64,000 nt of DNA from Escherichia coli. GTDB taxonomy: Bacteria; Pseudomonadota; Gammaproteobacteria; Enterobacterales; Enterobacteriaceae. The stretch lies in assembly GCF_050920415.1 (NCBI RefSeq), contig NZ_CP169309.1. One strand, written 5' to 3'. A model generated the notes under the pieces. It made no database searches, was not told where the DNA came from, and saw only the letters and a list, made by a program, of their open reading frames with translations. Positions within the stretch are counted from its first letter, which is position 1; every line of letters begins with the position of its first letter. This document shows positions 11,479 to 57,878 of this stretch, in pieces. Both the position numbers and the translations under genes were made by a program.

Positions 11479-12378
11479 TCACTCCATCATCTTCTCAATC
11501 GGCAGGACCAGGATTGAACTGGCACCCAGCGCTTTCAGTTTTTCCATCGTTTCCCAGAACAGGGTTTCGCTGCTGACCATGTGCATCGCTACGCGCTGTT
11601 GATCACCCGCCAGCGGTAGAATGGTTGGGCGTTCGGCACCTGGCAGCAGGGCGATGACTTCATCCAGTCGGTCGGTTGGTGCGTGCATCATGATGTATTT
11701 TGATTCGCGCGCCTGGATCACGCCCTGAATACGCGTCAGCAGTTTGTCGATCAGTTGCTGTTTGGATTCTTCCATTTCGCCATCGCGTTGGATCAGGCAG
11801 GCTTTCGAGCGGTAGATAACTTCGACTTCGCGCAGGCCGTTAGCTTCCAGCGTGGCACCGGTGGAAACCAGATCGCAAATCGCATCCGCCAGTCCGGCGC
11901 GCGGCGCAACTTCGACAGAACCGTTCAGTAAGCAGGATTTAAAAGAGATGCCTTTCTGATCGAGATAACGCTTGAGCAGGTGAGGATAAGAGGTGGCGAT
12001 ACGTTTACCGTTTAAGGAGAGCGGGCCGTCCCAGGCTTCATCAACCGGCGTTGCCAGCGAAAGGCGGCAGCCGCCGAAATCCAGACGACGCAGGGTAAAG
12101 TAGCGAGGATCTTCACCCTGGGCGCGGCGGTTAAGCAGCTCTTCTTCCAGCACGTTTTCGCCGATAATCCCAAGGTCAACCACGCCGTCCATTACCAGAC
12201 CGGGAATGTCGTCGTCACGCACGCGCAGAATATCAATCGGCATGTTTTCTGCCATCGCGATCAGGCGCTGGGTGTGAAGATTAATTTTAATGCCGCAGCG
12301 CGCCAGTAATTCGCGTGAGTCATCACTTAAACGGCCGGATTTCTGCATAGCTATGCGTAAACGAGTGTTGTCTGTCAT
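11479..12378 (-). CDS. hisG: ATP phosphoribosyltransferase
   Basis: ORF 11479..12417; start at [17 protein letters not shown], 299 aa. Confidence 0.96.
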
Positions 12379-12422
12379 TTTCTTATTCCTCTTTAAACCT
12401 GTCTGAACCGTTATCAACCGCG

Positions 12423-12460
12423 CAATAAAAAAGCCCCCGGAAGGTGATCTTCCGGGGGCT
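12423..12460 (-). terminator. his operon attenuator terminator
   Basis: On minus strand: hairpin agcccccggaagatcaccttccgggggct followed by U-run, between hisL and hisG. Confidence 0.85.
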
Positions 12461-12523
12461 TTCTCATACGTTCATGCACCACTGGAAGATCTGAATGTCT
12501 TCCAGCACACATCGCCTGAAAGA

Positions 12524-12574
12524 CTAGTCAGGATGATGGTGATGATGGTGGTGTTTAAATTGAACGCGTGTCAT
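12524..12574 (-). CDS. hisL: his operon leader peptide (7 consecutive His codons)
   Basis: Minus strand ATGACACGCGTTCAATTTAAACACCACCATCATCACCATCATCCTGACTAG read directly = MTRVQFKHHHHHHHPD. Confidence 0.92.
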   Translation of the reverse strand: MTRVQFKHHHHHHHPD

Positions 12575-12797
12575 AAAAGTCTCTGTGAATGTTTATTCAA
12601 CTGATGTCTTTTAACCTAAACCACTTTCACGTTAGAAAGCAAGGGCTTTTTTATATATTTTATGGCGATGGATTTGTTTAATGAATGAGCGGGGAAAGGA
12701 GAGGGCCAGGAGTGGCTACGTTAAAAAAGTAATCGTGAAAATATGTCTTTAAAACCCTCAAGAACATTGTGTTCTGTAACTAAAGTGGGCTTGGTTC

Positions 12798-12897
12798 CTG
12801 CCGGATGCGGCGTGAATGCCTTATCTGGTCTACAAATGTTGCCTAAATTCAATATATTGATGTTTTTGTAGGACTGATAAGCGGAGCGCATCAGGCA
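12798..12897. repeat. BIME-like pair of REP elements
   Basis: ccggatgcggcgtgaatgccttatctggtctac and gactgataagcggagcgcatcaggc, REP-type palindromes. Confidence 0.5.
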
Positions 12898-13000
12898 ATT
12901 GTATATTTGCTAACAGTTTCGATTTCATTCATAGAATGAATTGTCAGTTTTGATACGCTAGCGTAGCCTTATAGATCTAAGGTGTATCAGGAGATAACGG

Positions 13001-13825
13001 ATGAAAAAGGTCGCAATTGTCGGGTTAGGGTGGTTAGGTATGCCGCTAGCGATGTCACTTTCAGCGCGAGGCTGGCAAGTCACCGGGAGTAAAACCACAC
13101 AAGATGGCGTCGAAGCGGCCCGAATGAGTGGCATTGATAGTTATCTGCTTCGCATGGAACCTGAGTTAGTTTGCGATTCTGACGATCTGGATGCCCTGAT
13201 GGATGCTGATGCGCTGGTCATCACGCTTCCGGCACGTCGTAGCGGCCCCGGCGATGAGTTCTATTTACAAGCGGTACAAGAGTTAGTGGATAGTGCGCTG
13301 GCTCATCATATTCCCCGCATTATTTTTACCAGCTCAACGTCTGTCTATGGCGACGCACAAGGCACCGTTAAAGAAACGACCCCGCGTAATCCGGTGACCA
13401 ACAGTGGACGAGTATTAAAAGAACTTGAAGACTGGCTGCACAATTTACCCGGTACTTCAGTCGATATTCTGCGTCTTGCGGGCCTGGTCGGGCCGGAACG
13501 TCATCCTGGTCGCTTTTTTGCCGGAAAAACCGCGCCTGATGGTGAACATGGTGTCAATTTAGTCCATTTAGAAGATGTTATTGGCGCTATCACCCTGTTG
13601 TTACAGGCACCTAAAGGCGGACACATCTATAATATATGTGCGCCAGCTCACCCTGCGCGTAATGTTTTCTATCCGCAGATGGCCCGTTTACTGGGACTGG
13701 AACCTCCGCAGTTCAGAAATAGTCTGGACAGCGGCAAAGGTAAGATTATTGATGGCAGTCGGATTTGTAATGAACTGGGATTTGAATACCAGTATCCCGA
13801 TCCGCTGGTAATGCCGCTGGAGTAA
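13001..13825 (+). CDS. yeeZ: NAD(P)-binding epimerase/dehydratase-family protein
   Basis: 274 aa, N-terminal GxxGxxG-like MKKVAIVGLGWLG. Confidence 0.85.
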   Translation: MKKVAIVGLGWLGMPLAMSLSARGWQVTGSKTTQDGVEAARMSGIDSYLLRMEPELVCDSDDLDALMDADALVITLPARRSGPGDEFYLQAVQELVDSALAHHIPRIIFTSSTSVYGDAQGTVKETTPRNPVTNSGRVLKELEDWLHNLPGTSVDILRLAGLVGPERHPGRFFAGKTAPDGEHGVNLVHLEDVIGAITLLLQAPKGGHIYNICAPAHPARNVFYPQMARLLGLEPPQFRNSLDSGKGKIIDGSRICNELGFEYQYPDPLVMPLE

Positions 13826-13870
13826 ACGATCACGCCAGCAGGACGCCGCATGCACTGCAAGGGGGCGTGT

Positions 13871-14800
13871 ATGAAACCACTGCTGGATGTGTTGATGATC
13901 CTCGATGCCTTAGAAAAAGAAGGCAGTTTTGCGGCGGCGTCGGCCAAACTCTATAAGACGCCGTCTGCTCTGAGTTACACCGTTCACAAGCTGGAAAGCG
14001 ACCTTAATATTCAATTGCTTGATCGTAGCGGTCACCGCGCAAAATTCACCCGCACCGGAAAAATGTTATTAGAGAAGGGGCGGGAAGTTCTGCATACCGT
14101 GCGAGAACTGGAAAAACAGGCGATAAAACTGCATGAAGGCTGGGAAAACGAGCTGGTGATTGGCGTGGACGACACGTTTCCTTTTTCTCTGCTTGCGCCA
14201 CTCATTGAAGCTTTTTATCAACATCATAGCGTGACGCGCCTGAAGTTTATCAATGGCGTACTCGGTGGTTCATGGGATGCCCTGACTCAGGGGCGAGCGG
14301 ATATTATTGTTGGCGCGATGCATGAGCCACCATCTTCCAGTGAGTTTGGTTTCTCACGGTTGGGCGATCTTGAACAAGTCTTTGCGGTCGCGCCCCATCA
14401 TCCGTTAGCCCAGGAAGAAGAACCGTTAAACCGTCGTATCATTAAGCGATATAGGGCGATTGTGGTAGGGGATACTGCGCAGGCAGGCGCTTCTACGGCC
14501 TCGCAACTTCTCGACGAACAAGAAGCCATTACCGTTTTCGATTTTAAAACCAAGCTGGAGCTGCAAATTAGCGGCCTCGGCTGCGGCTATTTACCCCGTT
14601 ATCTGGCACAACGTTTTCTCGATAGTGGCGCGTTAATCGAGAAGAAAGTGGTCGCCCAAACTCTCTTTGAACCTGTCTGGATTGGCTGGAACGAACAGAC
14701 CGCAGGACTTGCCAGCGCCTGGTGGCGAGACGAGATTTTAGCAAATAGTGCGATCGCCGGTGTTTATGCAAAATCTGATGACGGAAAATCAGCCATTTAA
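13871..14800 (+). CDS. yeeY: LysR-family transcriptional regulator
   Basis: ORF 13850..14800; start at MKPLLDVLMILDALEKEGSFAAAS (HTH), 309 aa. Confidence 0.85.
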   Translation: MKPLLDVLMILDALEKEGSFAAASAKLYKTPSALSYTVHKLESDLNIQLLDRSGHRAKFTRTGKMLLEKGREVLHTVRELEKQAIKLHEGWENELVIGVDDTFPFSLLAPLIEAFYQHHSVTRLKFINGVLGGSWDALTQGRADIIVGAMHEPPSSSEFGFSRLGDLEQVFAVAPHHPLAQEEEPLNRRIIKRYRAIVVGDTAQAGASTASQLLDEQEAITVFDFKTKLELQISGLGCGYLPRYLAQRFLDSGALIEKKVVAQTLFEPVWIGWNEQTAGLASAWWRDEILANSAIAGVYAKSDDGKSAI

Positions 14801-15066: not shown

Positions 15067-16425
15067 ATGTCGCATAACGTTACTCCAAACACCTCTCGCG
15101 TGGAATTGCGTAAAACGCTTACGTTAGTTCCGGTTGTAATGATGGGTCTTGCCTATATGCAGCCGATGACGCTGTTTGATACATTTGGTATCGTTTCAGG
15201 CCTCACGGATGGTCATGTGCCGACAGCCTATGCGTTCGCATTGATTGCGATCCTGTTTACGGCTCTGAGCTACGGGAAGCTGGTTCGCCGCTATCCTTCT
15301 GCTGGCTCTGCATACACTTACGCCCAGAAATCCATTAGCCCGACCGTCGGCTTTATGGTGGGTTGGTCTTCTCTGCTCGACTATCTGTTCGCGCCGATGA
15401 TCAACATTCTGCTGGCGAAAATCTATTTTGAAGCTCTGGTGCCTTCCATCCCATCGTGGATGTTTGTGGTGGCGCTGGTGGCCTTTATGACCGCCTTTAA
15501 CCTGCGTAGTCTGAAATCCGTAGCGAACTTCAACACCGTCATCGTGGTGTTGCAGGTAGTGCTGATCGCGGTGATTCTGGGCATGGTTGTTTATGGCGTA
15601 TTTGAAGGTGAAGGCGCTGGTACGCTGGCGAGCACTCGTCCGTTCTGGTCTGGCGATGCGCATGTTATTCCGATGATTACCGGGGCGACAATCCTGTGCT
15701 TCTCCTTTACCGGCTTTGACGGCATCAGCAACCTGTCGGAAGAAACCAAAGATGCAGAGCGCGTGATCCCGCGTGCGATTTTCCTGACCGCGCTGATCGG
15801 CGGCATGATCTTCATCTTTGCAACTTACTTCCTGCAACTGTATTTCCCGGATATCTCTCGCTTTAAAGATCCGGATGCGTCACAGCCTGAAATCATGCTG
15901 TACGTTGCGGGTAAAGCGTTCCAGGTTGGCGCGCTGATCTTCTCCACCATTACCGTACTGGCGTCCGGTATGGCGGCGCACGCAGGCGTGGCGCGTCTGA
16001 TGTACGTAATGGGTCGTGACGGCGTATTCCCGAAAAGCTTCTTCGGTTATGTGCACCCGAAATGGCGTACTCCGGCAATGAACATCATCCTGGTTGGCGC
16101 GATTGCTCTGCTGGCAATCAACTTCGACCTGGTAATGGCTACGGCGCTGATTAACTTTGGTGCGCTGGTGGCGTTCACCTTCGTTAACCTGTCGGTTATC
16201 TCGCAGTTCTGGATCCGTGAGAAGCGTAACAAGACGCTGAAAGATCACTTCCAGTATCTGTTCCTGCCGATGTGTGGTGCGCTGACTGTAGGTGCGCTGT
16301 GGGTTAACCTGGAAGAAAGCTCAATGGTTCTGGGGCTGATCTGGGCGGCAATCGGTCTGATTTACCTGGCTTGCGTCACCAAGAGCTTCCGTAACCCGGT
16401 TCCGCAGTACGAAGACGTTGCATAA
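15067..16425 (+). CDS. plaP: Putrescine importer (APC-family amino acid/polyamine permease)
   Basis: ORF 15061..16425; start at [16 protein letters not shown], 452 aa, multi-TM. Confidence 0.9.
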
Positions 16426-16463
16426 TCTTACAAGCCGGATGACATAATCATCCGGTAAATCTC

Positions 16464-16496
16464 AAAAAGCCGGAGTTTGTCGCTCCGGCTTTTTTG
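16464..16496. terminator. Bidirectional terminator between convergent plaP and sbcB
   Basis: aaaaagccggag...ctccggctttttt. Confidence 0.75.
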
Positions 16497-16498
16497 TT

Positions 16499-17926
16499 TC
16501 AGACGATCTCTTCCGCGTACTGCCAAAGCGCTTTTAACAGCGCCACTTTCTCTTTGTCATCGGCATATTGTTGTGCCAGCATCTGCAATTCATCTGCATA
16601 GCCCTGCAAAAACTCTGGCGTGAAGACCTGGCGGCGGTGCTCCAGCCAGCGTTGCTGCTCGGCATAATCCAGCGTCCCCGGGAAGTTGCGTGCTCGATAA
16701 TTGAACAACAGCTTTTCAATCCGTTTATCAACAAAAGTGATATCCAGTGCCGGTAAATTACGCGGCTCGGTTTCAAGCACAATTTTCATTGCTGCACGAT
16801 CGGCGTCACTGAAAAAGCCATTATAAAGCTGTGCATCCACGTTATCTGAAGGCGTAAACGGTTCGGCTTCGGCGAATATCGCCACCACTTTTTCACGCAC
16901 TTGCGGATTTTCACGCAGAATTTTCAGGTTATCGAGGCAATGCTGACGATTAATTCCCAGTCGGTCGGCATCTTCCGGGCGTAGCGTATTCGCCTGGGCC
17001 AGCACCGGACATTTATTGATATGCACCAGTTTAACCGGAACGGCGGCGTTATCGCCAAGATCGGCTTTTGCGGTATATAAACGCTCGCGCAATGTGTCGC
17101 TATCCAGCTCCAGTAATGGCGAAATGTCTCCTGCCAAATCCACCATAATTACGGCATTGCGATTTTCAGGATGCCACGCCAGCGGTGCTACCCAGCTGGT
17201 ATTGCCGCGCCATGCCCCAAACATTCCGGAAACGTGAACCAGGGGTTTCATCTGCGGAACATCAATCAACGCCATCAGTTTGTGTTTATTGCGATGGGTA
17301 AAGAGATAATCAAATAGGCGTGGCTGACGCATTTTTACCAGCTTTGCCATCGCAATAGTGGCGTACACATCAGCCATCGCATCGTGGGCGTTGCTATGTT
17401 CAATACCATTCGCTTTGGTTAAATGCTCAAGGCGAAAGCTCGGTAGACCGTCATCATTTTCAGGCCAGTTTATTCCTTCCGGGCGCAGGGCATAACAGGC
17501 ACGCATAACATCCAGTAAATCCCAGCGCGAGTTATCATGCTGCCAGCTCCAGGCGTAAGGATCGTAGAAATTACGATAAAAAACGTTGCGTGTGACTTCG
17601 TCGTCGAAACGCACATTGTTGTAGCCCAGAATACAGGTCTTCGGTACGGTAAAAAGCGAGTGAATACGGGCGGCAAACGCGGCTTCGTTTTCTCCTTTCG
17701 CCCGTGCTTCCTGCGGGGTAATACCGGTAATTAATACTGCTCCAGGCTGCGGTAAATAGTCATCCGCGGGCTTGCAGTAAAAAACTTCGGGTTCGCCGAT
17801 GACGTTGAATTCGTTATCAGTGCGAATGGCTGCGAACTGTGCAGGGCGATCTAACGCGGGGTGCGTTCCAAAGGTTTCGTAATCGTGAAACAAAAAGGTA
17901 GATTGTTGCTTACCGTCATTCATCAT
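16499..17926 (-). CDS. sbcB: Exodeoxyribonuclease I
   Basis: ORF 16499..17974; start at MMNDGKQQSTFLFHDYETFG, 475 aa. Confidence 0.95.
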   Translation of the reverse strand: MMNDGKQQSTFLFHDYETFGTHPALDRPAQFAAIRTDNEFNVIGEPEVFYCKPADDYLPQPGAVLITGITPQEARAKGENEAAFAARIHSLFTVPKTCILGYNNVRFDDEVTRNVFYRNFYDPYAWSWQHDNSRWDLLDVMRACYALRPEGINWPENDDGLPSFRLEHLTKANGIEHSNAHDAMADVYATIAMAKLVKMRQPRLFDYLFTHRNKHKLMALIDVPQMKPLVHVSGMFGAWRGNTSWVAPLAWHPENRNAVIMVDLAGDISPLLELDSDTLRERLYTAKADLGDNAAVPVKLVHINKCPVLAQANTLRPEDADRLGINRQHCLDNLKILRENPQVREKVVAIFAEAEPFTPSDNVDAQLYNGFFSDADRAAMKIVLETEPRNLPALDITFVDKRIEKLLFNYRARNFPGTLDYAEQQRWLEHRRQVFTPEFLQGYADELQMLAQQYADDKEKVALLKALWQYAEEIV

Positions 17927-24957: not shown

Positions 24958-27208
24958 ATGATGCGTCGTGTAAATATTTTTTGCTCATTTGCTCTACTTT
25001 TTGCCAGCCATAATAGCCTGGCGGTAACTTATCCATTACCTCCAGAGGGTAGCCGTTTAGTGGGACAGTCGCTTACTGTAACTGTTCCTGATCACAATAC
25101 CCAGCCGCTGGAGACTTTTGCCGCACAATACGGGCAAGGGTTAAGTAACATGCTGGAAGCGAATCCGGGGGCTGATGTCTTCTTACCGAAGTCTGGCTCG
25201 CAACTCACCATTCCGCAGCAACTGATTTTGCCCGCCACTGTTCGTAAAGGGATTGTGATTAACGTCGCTGAGATGCGTCTTTATTACTACCCGCCAGACA
25301 GTAATACTGTGGAAGTCTTTCCTATTGGTATCGGCCAGGCTGGGCGAGAAACCCCGCGTAACTGGGTGACTACCGTTGAACGTAAACAAGAAGCACCAAC
25401 CTGGACGCCAACGCCGAACACCCGGCGCGAATATGCGAAACGAGGGGAGAGTTTGCCCGCATTTGTTCCTGCGGGGCCTGATAATCCCATGGGGCTGTAC
25501 GCGATTTATATTGGCAGGCTATATGCCATCCACGGTACCAATGCCAATTTTGGTATTGGGCTCCGGGTAAGTCAGGGCTGTATTCGTCTGCGCAATGACG
25601 ATATCAAATATCTGTTTGATAATGTTCCTGTAGGTACTCGTGAACCGCCCCGGAAATCCTGGAGACTAAACTTCCTGAGAAAGAGGTAAACAGGATGACT
25701 AAAAATACTCGTTTTTCCCCCGAAGTCCGTCAACGCGCAGTTCGTATGGTTCTGGAAAGTCAGGGCGAATATGACTCACAATGGGCGGCAATTTGTTCCA
25801 TTGCTCCAAAGATTGGCTGTACGCCAGAGACTCTGCGTGTCTGGGTTCGCCAGCATGAGAGGGATACCGGGAGCGGTGATGGTGGGCTCACCACCGCTGA
25901 ACGTCAGCGTCTGAAAGAGCTGGAACGTGAAAATCGTGAACTGCGCCGCAGTAACGATATCCTTCGCCAGGCTTCCGCTTATTTTGCGAAGGCGGAGTTC
26001 GACCGCCTCTGGAAAAAATAATGCCACTGCTGGATAAGCTGCGTGAGCAGTACGGGGTCGGACCGGTATGCAGTGAACTGCATATTGCCCCGTCAACGTA
26101 TTACCATTGTCAGCAGCAGCGGCATCATCCTGATAAACGCAGTGCCCGTGCGCAGCGCGATGACTGGCTGAAGAGAGAGATACAGCGCGTATACGATGAA
26201 AATCATCAGGTGTACGGTGTGCGTAAAGTCTGGCGTCAGTTGTTACGGGAAGGAATCAGGGTGGCCAGATGTACAGTGGCGCGCCTCATGGCGGTTATGG
26301 GACTTGCCGGTGTTCTCCGGGGTAAAAAGGTCCGCACTACCGTCAGCCGGAAAACCGTTGCCACAGGTGACCGCGTAAACCGTCAGTTCGTGGCAGAACG
26401 TCCTGACCAGCTGTGGGTGGCTGATTTTACTTACGTCAGCACATGGCAGGGCTTCGTCTATGTGGCGTTCATCATTGATGTGTTTGCCGGATACATCGTG
26501 GGGTGGCGGGTCTCATCGTCTATGGAAACGACATTCGTGCTGGATGCGCTGGAGCAGGCGTTGTGGGCCCGTCGTCCGTCTGGCACCATCCATCACAGCG
26601 ATAAAGGCTCTCAGTATGTGTCACTGGCCTATACGGAGCGACTAAAAGAAGCAAAACTGCTGGCATCAACAGGGAGTACAGGCGACTCGTATGACAACGC
26701 GATGGCTGAGAGCATCAATGGTCTTTACAAAGCGGAGGTAATACACCGTAAGAGCTGGAAAAACCGTGCAGAAGTGGAACTGGCCACACTCACGTGGGTG
26801 GACTGGTATAACAATCGACGATTGCTGGGAAGGCTGGGCCATACTCCTCCGGCAGAAGCAGAAAAAGCTTATTATGCTTCCATCGGAAACAATGATCTGG
26901 CAGCCTGAGTTCACAGATAAAACACTCTCCAGGAAACCCGGGGCGGTTCAACTCGTGTACAAATTATTGATCAGCCAGTGAAATACACAACGGAACCGGA
27001 TGGATCAAAGTGGCTGGAAGTTCATGAGCCACTGTCGCGCAACCGTGCGGAATATGAGTCAGACCGAAAAGTGCCTTTGCCAGTAACGCCATCTTTGCGG
27101 ACGTTCATTAACGGGCAAGAAGTTGATGTGAATCGCGCAAATGCTGCATTGCAGCGCCGATCAGGAATGCCTGTGCAAATTAGTTCTGGTTCAAGACAGA
27201 TGTTTTAA
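24958..27208 (+). pseudogene. ldtA: L,D-transpeptidase LdtA (ErfK) interrupted by an IS element; 5' part 24958..25640, 3' part 26951..27208
   Basis: N-terminal ORF ends ...DNVPVGTR at the IS boundary; the reading frame resumes exactly after the IS as TRVQIIDQPVKYTTEPDGS...SGSRQMF. Confidence 0.9.
25641..26950 (+). mobile_element. IS3-family insertion sequence, IS629/IS1203-like, 1310 bp, with orfA 25695..26021 and orfB 26021..26908
   Basis: Terminal inverted repeats TGAACCGCCCCGG...CCGGGGCGGTTCA; orfA (108 aa, HTH) and orfB (295 aa, DDE transposase) overlap at an A-rich slippery region; flanked by direct repeat ACTCG. Confidence 0.92.
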
Positions 27209-27258: not shown

Positions 27259-27263
27259 GAATT

Positions 27264-27339
27264 TGGCTCCTCTGACTGGACTCGAACCAGTGACATACGG
27301 ATTAACAGTCCGCCGTTCTACCGACTGAACTACAGAGGA
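27264..27339 (-). tRNA. asnV: tRNA-Asn (GUU)
   Basis: 76 nt; reverse complement begins TCCTCTGTAGTTCAGTCGGTAGAACGGCGGACTGTTAATCC and ends ...GAGGAGCCA. Confidence 0.95.
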
Positions 27340-29663: not shown

Positions 29664-29670
29664 AGAAATT

Positions 29671-29746
29671 TGGCTCCTCTGACTGGACTCGAACCAGTGA
29701 CATACGGATTAACAGTCCGCCGTTCTACCGACTGAACTACAGAGGA
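29671..29746 (-). tRNA. asnU: tRNA-Asn (GUU)
   Basis: 76 nt, identical tRNA-Asn sequence on minus strand. Confidence 0.95.
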
Positions 29747-31394: not shown

Positions 31395-31494
31395 ACGACA
31401 AAGTGCAGATTATTTCAGCAAACGATTTCAAATTTAAAAAACAGGCTTTGACATTAAGGATGGGCATCGCTAATATTCGCCTCGTTCTCACGAT

Positions 31495-31570
31495 TCCTCT
31501 GTAGTTCAGTCGGTAGAACGGCGGACTGTTAATCCGTATGTCACTGGTTCGAGTCCAGTCAGAGGAGCCA
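31495..31570 (+). tRNA. asnW: tRNA-Asn (GUU)
   Basis: TCCTCTGTAGTTCAGTCGGTAGAACGGCGGACTGTTAATCCGTATGTCACTGGTTCGAGTCCAGTCAGAGGAGCCA. Confidence 0.95.
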
Positions 31571-37330: not shown

Positions 37331-37706
37331 AGGGTAATGCCGATCTATGCTGAACAGGGGACATTAATACCCTGAGGTTGGTCAATCACCACAAAAAAAG
37401 CCTTTGAATCAAAGCAATACTCACCGAATAATAAGGCAACCTGAACTTAAATCCCCGTTAACTGCCATACATTATTATGACTTGCACTGATGTAATTAGC
37501 TAAACATTATCGTGATTTGACTAAATAGCAAAAATGATAGCTATTAAAAATAGCTCATATACTTTGTTTCCCGCTGCCGTAGAATAGATGGTCCTTCCAT
37601 GTTCAAGCATTTATTCAAAAAAAGGGGGCTCGACTGTCTTCAGATAAACAGAGAGGGATTGTAAAGTCGAGTGCCCCTAATGGAGCACTCTATAAAAAAT
37701 CAACAA

Positions 37707-45695
<7,989 letters not shown>

Positions 45696-54225: not shown

Positions 54226-54386
54226 TTGGGGGTCACTCCAGAATCGAACCAAACTGACCCCAGATCTGACCACCAAATTATCCCGATGCGGAGAGAAAAC
54301 CAGATACGCACCGGGGAGGATTTTCACGCTAACTTACTGAACCGTAAACAAATAGAGATGTACAGATAAGCATGAAAACTTGAATT

Positions 54387-54462
54387 TGGCTCCTCTGACT
54401 GGACTCGAACCAGTGACATACGGATTAACAGTCCGCCGTTCTACCGACTGAACTACAGAGGA
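54387..54462 (-). tRNA. asnT: tRNA-Asn (GUU)
   Basis: 76 nt, identical tRNA-Asn sequence; sits between mtfA and the islet/yeeJ. Confidence 0.93.
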
Positions 54463-54562
54463 ATCGTGTGAACAGGGCGCATGTTACTTAGCGGTACCTT
54501 GTCTGTCAACACTAAATTTCATAAGTCATTTCAATTGGTTAATTAATCTGCAAAGTTGTTAA

Positions 54563-57652: not shown

Positions 57653-57844
57653 AACAGTTTCCTCCAGAGTTATTGTACATGACGTGTTATGTTATATTGT
57701 AACATATGACGAAATGCAATAACTCTTAGGAAACAAGAGCATAGTTTTCTCAGGTGTATTTACCTATCTTATTGAAATGAAATAAATTATGTCGATGATT
57801 TGAGGTTGATGACAAACGAAACATAACTTGATGCGATCTGTGTG

Positions 57845-57878
57845 GGCCGGATAAGGCGCTCACACCGCATCCGGCAGG
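57845..57878. repeat. REP element
   Basis: gggccggataaggcgctcacaccgcatccggcag. Confidence 0.6.

Follow-up and report, generated by a model that had tools for sequence, protein, structure and literature searches.

We are highly confident that the 426-bp spacer between hisL and yeeZ in the 64-kb window (the whole stretch of Escherichia coli DNA that we analyzed, 64,000 nucleotides) carries one of two alleles common in Escherichia: a form with no toxin–antitoxin (TA) genes and no protein-coding gene of any kind, whose core is a BIME-1 element at the position where K-12 has yefM-yoeB. That a TA-free, REP-bearing spacer occurs at this locus is a correct finding, and one already described for O157:H7 Sakai: Iguchi et al (2011; PLoS One 6:e23250, PMC3158064) reported this strain to be without yoeB and yefM at yeeZ–hisL, and counted yeeZ–hisL among the spacers holding REPs tied to insertions and deletions. 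Our analysis adds population counts, exact breakpoints, the assignment of the element to BIME-1, the state of the locus in outgroups and a comparison with plasmids, and it leaves this picture unchanged.

A replaced yefM-yoeB cassette

The spacer sits between two divergent genes, hisL on the − strand and yeeZ on the + strand. Its left boundary is the hisL leader peptide gene (12524..12574, − strand), which we placed from the sequence and from the annotation of NZ_CP169399.1, where the coordinates are identical. The His leader (attenuator) RNA at 12425..12548 (− strand; Rfam RF00514, 131.8 bits, E = 1.5e-23, gathering threshold 49) flanks the spacer on this side and is untouched by the TA/BIME polymorphism, and hisG lies beyond it at 11479..12378 (− strand). 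The right boundary is yeeZ (13001..13825, + strand), which encodes an SDR-family oxidoreductase or epimerase and was placed from the list of open reading frames (ORFs) and the annotation of a near-identical genome; yeeY is the next gene after it. That genome, of the Korean food isolate E. coli MFDS1022581 (NZ_CP169399.1), is complete and independent of the window, matches it at 99.994% identity over 50 kb, and agrees with it in gene coordinates.

The first-pass annotation had described an interval at 12575..13000 free of ORFs of 60 amino acids or more, and had placed yefM-yoeB between yeeZ and hisL in K-12. Both statements are right. The interval is exact to the base, with the hisL start codon ending at 12574 and yeeZ beginning at 13001, and the longest ORFs in the six-frame list are one of 58 amino acids (12958..13134, − strand), which extends into yeeZ on the opposite strand, and one of 56 amino acids (12721..12891, − strand); a further ORF of 42 amino acids lies at 12743..12871 (+ strand). 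In MG1655, the order is yeeZ (b2016)–yoeB (b4539)–yefM (b2017)–hisL (b2018). The same annotation had proposed that the TA pair is absent here, and permissive tblastn searches of the 64-kb window with the K-12 proteins bear this out: the best matches reached only E = 0.8 for YefM and E = 1.4 for YoeB, and neither query matched within 12575..13000, so that both genes are missing from the spacer and from the entire window. For the strain’s genome as a whole, absence has indirect support in the near-identity of the window to MFDS1022581 and in the genome counts given below, which place all full-length cassettes at this locus; a divergent pair of the YefM/YoeB family may still exist elsewhere in it.

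Alignment of the interval with K-12, which had been suggested as a check, gives sharp breakpoints. In blastn, the window and K-12 form two collinear blocks at 12000..12712 (98.0% identity) and 12924..14000 (97.1%), and the gap separating these blocks is filled in the window by 211 bp that bear the BIME (12713..12923) and in K-12 by a 652-bp TA cassette (locus L001, 4207..4858). The K-12 cassette begins with 144 bp upstream of yefM, where the operator and promoter lie, continues through yefM and yoeB, and ends 5 bp past the yoeB stop codon; the operon is autoregulated and directed toward yeeZ. The window resembles the K-12 type II TA locus (Kedzierska et al, 2007; PMC1802561) in hisL, the his promoter region, a 55-bp piece that follows, and the last 77 bp before yeeZ, all at 97–98% identity. 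It differs in what lies between these parts, which in K-12 is 652 bp with an autoregulated promoter, paired palindromes, yefM and yoeB, and in the window is an unrelated 211 bp.

We compared the 211-bp segment to the cassette on both strands by Smith-Waterman alignment, and the scores fell inside the distribution obtained with shuffled sequences. For the 144 bp upstream of yefM, 886 of 1,000 shuffles scored as high as or higher than the alignment to the 211-bp segment. The yefM operator is made up of paired palindromes with a TGTACA core at the promoter (PMC1802561), and local alignment gave no significant match between this upstream region and the 211 bp. With alignments to both the cassette and the promoter region at shuffle level, we rejected the idea that the segment holds a decayed TA remnant. 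By these scores, the 211 bp and the cassette are unrelated, and the difference at this spacer is a replacement and not a TA locus in decay.

Since the 652-bp cassette is replaced, strains with the BIME allele would have neither the YoeB mRNA interferase nor the YefM repressor, and they would be without the yefM promoter, which is divergent from that of the his operon; in these strains, yeeZ would rely on a promoter of its own. The yefM promoter is the likely source of an old “cryptic divergent transcript” (Kedzierska et al; PMC1802561). As judged from the alignments, the region just upstream of hisL (left of 12658) is common to all spacer forms.

Several further features of the window came to light alongside this locus. 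Both tsuA (yeeE) and yeeD, which stand beside plaP in MG1655, are missing, and plaP (15067..16425) is followed by sbcB (16499..17926) across a gap at 16426..16498; yeeD and yeeE are likewise absent in some strains with the O157 antigen (Iguchi et al, 2011; PMC3158064). At 24958..27206, an L,D-transpeptidase gene is interrupted by an IS3-family transposase that carries a frameshift, and the sole differences between the window and MFDS1022581 over 50 kb (one mismatch and two gaps) start inside this IS3-family element, at about 26328. Within a gene for a very large protein with Ig-like domains (37705..45693; about 2,660 amino acids), a stretch of about 610 bp is duplicated in tandem, with 85% identity between the copies (41362..42051 versus 41971..42660). 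Around nac, cbl and yeeO, three genes annotated as tRNA-Asn are found in the space of 5 kb (27262..27337, 29669..29744 and 31493..31568), with a fourth near-identical copy about 23 kb further along, at about 54380..54486; tRNA-Asn genes serve as island integration sites in other strains.

Anatomy of the spacer and its BIME-1

The spacer divides into four parts. The his-side part (12575..12657), which alignments show to be common to K-12, Salmonella and Citrobacter, contains just upstream of hisL what we take to be the his promoter, with a −35 element of TTGCTT and a −10 element of TAGGTT on the − strand. It is followed by a 55-bp piece (12658..12712) specific to Escherichia and present in both the BIME and the TA alleles, as defined by a MAFFT alignment with Citrobacter and Salmonella and by the alignment with K-12; in blastn, the region of this piece is 88% identical over 60 bp to a TA-allele locus from E. 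whittamii. The allele-specific segment delimited by the blastn comparison with K-12 (12713..12923, 211 bp) comes third. The remaining 77 bp (12924..13000, + strand) are common to K-12 and the outgroups and hold the yeeZ ribosome-binding region.

A hairpin with a 7-bp stem, TTCATTC-ATA-GAATGAA, begins exactly at the right junction (12924..12940; fold z = −2.85). The junction is also spanned by a promoter-like match, CTAACA-16-TAGAAT (12910..12937), which is weak and a match to consensus only; as a putative yeeZ promoter, it would be allele-specific.

Where the first-pass annotation had noted REP/BIME-like palindromes, correctly, we can now be more precise and describe one BIME-1. Its first arm is a Y-type REP at 12800..12833 (+ strand; three mismatches to the consensus), its second arm an inverted Z1-type REP at 12868..12896 (− strand; one mismatch), and for each of these, none of 100 dinucleotide shuffles gave a match. 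The Y and Z1 consensus sequences are those of the Gilson/Bachellier classification. Between the two REPs lies a 34-bp L-type linker, AAATGTTGCCTAAATTCAATATATTGATGTTTTT (12834..12867), with an IHF-like site at 12850..12862 (− strand; core ATCAATATATTG). The core of the linker is palindromic, and 12 of its 13 positions match the IHF consensus WATCAANNNNTTR on either strand. Each REP folds as single-stranded DNA into an imperfect hairpin, and the whole element has a fold z of −3.7.

BIME-1 elements combine a Y and a Z1 REP across a long conserved L linker, often with an IHF site, and occur in single copy (Ton-Hoang et al, PMC3333891). The spacer element has the Y REP, the inverted Z1 REP and the long L linker, and on this sequence evidence it is one BIME-1; the Y/Z1 pair is single, with no tandem repeat. 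Like the BIME-1/RIB/RIP elements of E. coli (PMC3333891), it pairs inverse Y and Z1 REPs in single copy around a long, conserved linker that bears an IHF-like site, and its family occupies dozens of places per genome. It aligns from end to end, linker included, with the BIME of the cmoB–torZ spacer. A 104-bp query made from the element matched at least 25 to 61 places per E. coli genome among the matches listed, many of them with 97–98% coverage at 84–86% identity. The one departure is in position: BIME-1 elements usually lie at the 3′ end of a transcription unit, which is typical and not strictly defining, whereas this one sits between divergent genes, and functional equivalence with the others is an assumption on our part. 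By analogy with other BIME-1 elements, it would bind IHF and form hairpins. Elements of the RIB/RIP type were reportedly described in E. coli by Boccard and Prentki in 1993. The sole other Y-type REP in the 64-kb window is at 57842..57875 (− strand), also with three mismatches to the consensus.

The BIME does not fill the allele-specific segment. About 114 bp flank it within the 211 bp (87 bp on the left and 27 bp on the right), and these had no match elsewhere in E. coli genomes or plasmids. A search for the source of the non-REP insert DNA among plasmids and 80 enterobacterial loci gave nothing beyond copies on Escherichia chromosomes and matches of a generic BIME kind.

Two alleles in E. 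coli and the spacer in related species

We counted both alleles in 5,426 complete E. coli genomes, accepting matches with at least 80% query coverage. The 652-bp K-12 cassette is present in 4,212 of these (78%), and 4,212 of 5,426 is also the count for the cassette found at a single place together with its two flanks. The equality of the two counts suggests that every full-length cassette sits at the hisL–yeeZ locus; on the plasmids of the 5,426 genomes, we found no copy of the cassette. The 211-bp segment of the window is present in 1,196 genomes at 96–100% identity, and the window spacer is contiguous with its flanks in 1,193. The two alleles together account for 5,408 genomes, which leaves about 18 with something else. 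Neither the counts nor the matches sampled gave any sign of an overlap of the two alleles in one genome, which is compatible with the TA and BIME alleles being mutually exclusive.

Among pathogenic lineages, O157:H7 has the BIME allele with an unchanged layout. Its spacer resembles that of the window in locus, in the absence of yoeB and yefM and in its REPs (as for Sakai; PMC3158064), and the 211-bp segment is 96.7% identical in O157:H7 genomes. The differences are a few substitutions and a 1-bp indel; the spacer has 425 bp there and 426 bp in the window, whose genomic background is close to that of MFDS1022581. The TA allele was found in the genomes sampled from O103, O111:H8, O121 and the ST131 strain EC958.

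Three E. coli genomes have unusual spacers. TUM1509 (H133, NZ_CP195093.1 1796002..1797746) carries a TA allele of K-12 type with an IS1A inserted within the hisL–yeeZ interval. The soil isolate MEI4BO-21 (L083 1650..1827, NZ_CM149565.1) has a compact spacer of 178 bp like those of non-Escherichia genera; because it also lacks yeeY and is only 89.6% identical in the his leader region, its sequence suggests that it acquired its his–yeeZ region from a different genus. The spacer of HH97 (L082 1325..1973, NZ_CP116409.1) is 649 bp long and shows a partial cassette match at 76.8%. K-mer painting resolved it into runs of 8–40 bp from the TA allele and the BIME allele, interleaved in order and with no intact gene. 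Given this fine interleaving, we rejected HH97 as an evolutionary intermediate and excluded it from the analysis; its spacer is best read as the chimeric consensus of a mixed sample, in other words as an artefact of assembly in a genome publicly deposited as “complete”.

Outside E. coli, we relied on one YeeZ scan of species-representative genomes, which yielded 80 loci, E. fergusonii and E. marmotae not among them. The BIME allele is found in E. albertii NBRC 107761 (L002; 89.9% identity to the window, with yeeZ at 92.5%), Escherichia sp. E1V33 (L005; 95.3%, yeeZ 93.2%) and Escherichia sp. MOD1-EC7003 (L006; 93.4%, yeeZ 93.9%), as well as in a genome labelled “E. coli E69” (L003; 99.5%, yeeZ 93.5%). 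The TA allele is found in E. whittamii (L004), at 96.8% identity to K-12 and with yeeZ at 93.2% to K-12. Because the first three of these loci are of the BIME type and that of E. whittamii is of the TA type, both alleles are common to several Escherichia species and appear to be old.

In other genera, the locus is compact. The gap between the start of hisG and the start of yeeZ is 349–382 bp in about 70 species, from genera that include Salmonella, Citrobacter, Klebsiella, Enterobacter, Kluyvera and Kosakonia, and the hisL–yeeZ spacer is 161–163 bp long in the Salmonella and Citrobacter loci that we examined. No YefM or YoeB was found in the non-Escherichia loci of the YeeZ scan. Alignment with these outgroups identifies the extra, Escherichia-only DNA as window positions 12658..12923, that is, the 55-bp piece together with the allele-specific part. 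Moreover, the right edge of this Escherichia insert, at 12923/12924, coincides with the right edge of the TA/BIME difference. As far as these alignments go, neither the TA allele nor the BIME allele is ancestral for the family.

Other repeats occur at or near this site. Two loci, L019 (2502..3003) and L075 (2366..3003; Kosakonia oryziphila), have a repeat at the BIME/TA insertion point, which widens their hisG–yeeZ gaps to 498 and 634 bp; judged by the ERIC consensus, we take this repeat to be ERIC/IRU-like. BIME/REP-like sequence also lies just 3′ of hisG in three Citrobacter loci (L057 1634..1730, L046 1633..1730 and L021 1631..1728) and in Salmonella diarizonae (L014 1707..1736), where it is related to the BIME of the window; in the window, merely 5 bp separate hisG from hisD.

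Origin of the two alleles and what they mean

A recent private deletion or an assembly collapse, by which the TA genes would have been lost or missed in this strain only, could account for the absence itself, and HH97 shows that an assembly-type anomaly can arise at this locus. We give this reading next to no credence: it is refuted by the 1,196 complete genomes that share the 211-bp segment with 96–100% identity, by the occurrence of this segment in O157:H7 and in other Escherichia species, and by the agreement at 99.994% of the independent complete genome of MFDS1022581. The window allele would instead be an old alternative state. It is also very improbable that a substitute gene is hidden in the spacer, whether for a small protein, an sRNA or another type of TA system. 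The candidates are the ORFs of 56 (− strand) and 42 (+ strand) amino acids, together with the REP-derived RNA naRNA4, whose Rfam model matches weakly and far below its gathering score (19.9 versus 59.5 bits). However, the 56-aa ORF is interrupted by stop codons in E. albertii, E1V33 and MOD1-EC7003, the 42-aa ORF has lost both its start and its stop codon in E. albertii, and both ORFs overlap the REPs; neither being kept in other Escherichia species, we rejected them as genes. In an Rfam scan of the spacer at a permissive E-value, only the His leader rose above threshold.

The harder question is how the two old alleles are related. Because the 55-bp piece and the right junction are common to both, one allele was probably converted into the other at some point. 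Under an ancient loss, the TA module would have come first, in the Escherichia ancestor, and its 652 bp would later have been replaced by the 211-bp REP-bearing segment, which then spread by homologous recombination through the his and yeeZ flanks. The shared 55-bp piece and the identical junction at 12923/12924 fit such a derivation, most E. coli genomes (78%) have the TA allele, which is also found in E. whittamii, and REPs are known to be places where rearrangements and insertions occur (PMC3333891). Yet the 211 bp retain no remnant of the cassette, and the BIME allele is found in E. albertii, the most divergent lineage sampled, at an identity (89.9%) in line with that of the flanking genes. 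Plasmids also bear on the matter. Large plasmids of Salmonella, Citrobacter and E. marmotae carry yefM-yoeB modules with 82–86% identity to the K-12 cassette. The homology is confined to positions 81–648 of the cassette: it starts some 64 bp ahead of yefM, runs as far as the stop codon of yoeB, and has its right end within a few bases of the right chromosomal junction. Because the plasmid copies match only this stretch from promoter to yoeB stop, we infer, in keeping with the usual view, that the TA module is the mobile, horizontally acquired part; limits that fit the right edge of the cassette are as expected for an insertion, and count against a loss. We regard ancient loss as possible and rather doubtful, and place somewhat ahead of it a landing of the TA module in a BIME-bearing spacer, or a neutral scenario.

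A more far-reaching reading, to which we give somewhat less than even odds, is that the site flanked by the his promoter region and the small yeeZ hairpin is a recurrent insertion hotspot across Enterobacteriaceae, and that the TA/BIME difference is an old polymorphism of several Escherichia species, maintained by frequent recombination in the neighbouring his–O-antigen region and not by TA function. Such a hotspot may have received a plasmid-type TA module or a BIME-1 segment in Escherichia; in two other species, the elements it received would be ERIC-like. A parallel is ccdO157, which Mine et al. reportedly found in 2009 in the folA–apaH spacer of some E. coli lineages, with a short non-coding sequence in others. 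There too, a chromosomal type II TA system in a housekeeping intergenic region is present or absent by lineage; the TA family and the locus are different, and at hisL–yeeZ we saw no pseudogenised intermediates.

Overall, the TA/BIME polymorphism at hisL–yeeZ amounts to ordinary variation between strains. Fiedoruk and colleagues in 2015 (in Microbiology) and Ramisetty and Santhosh in 2016 (in FEMS Microbiol Lett) are reported to have dealt with how unevenly TA systems are spread in E. coli and with their horizontal transfer. The yefM-yoeB pair is among the most studied “chromosomal” TA systems, and a link has been drawn between it and colonisation of the bladder by uropathogenic E. coli. MG1655, W, EDL933 and UTI89 have no type II TA system in common (Fraikin et al, 2020; PMC7167474). 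Our counts make yefM-yoeB accessory, with about 22% of complete E. coli genomes, O157:H7 included, lacking it and a BIME-1 in its stead, which cautions against generalising TA phenotypes from K-12. The spacer also offers a simple two-allele marker beside the O-antigen region and, with its compact ancestral form, two alternative inserts in Escherichia and ERIC-like inserts elsewhere, a modest example of an intergenic hotspot.
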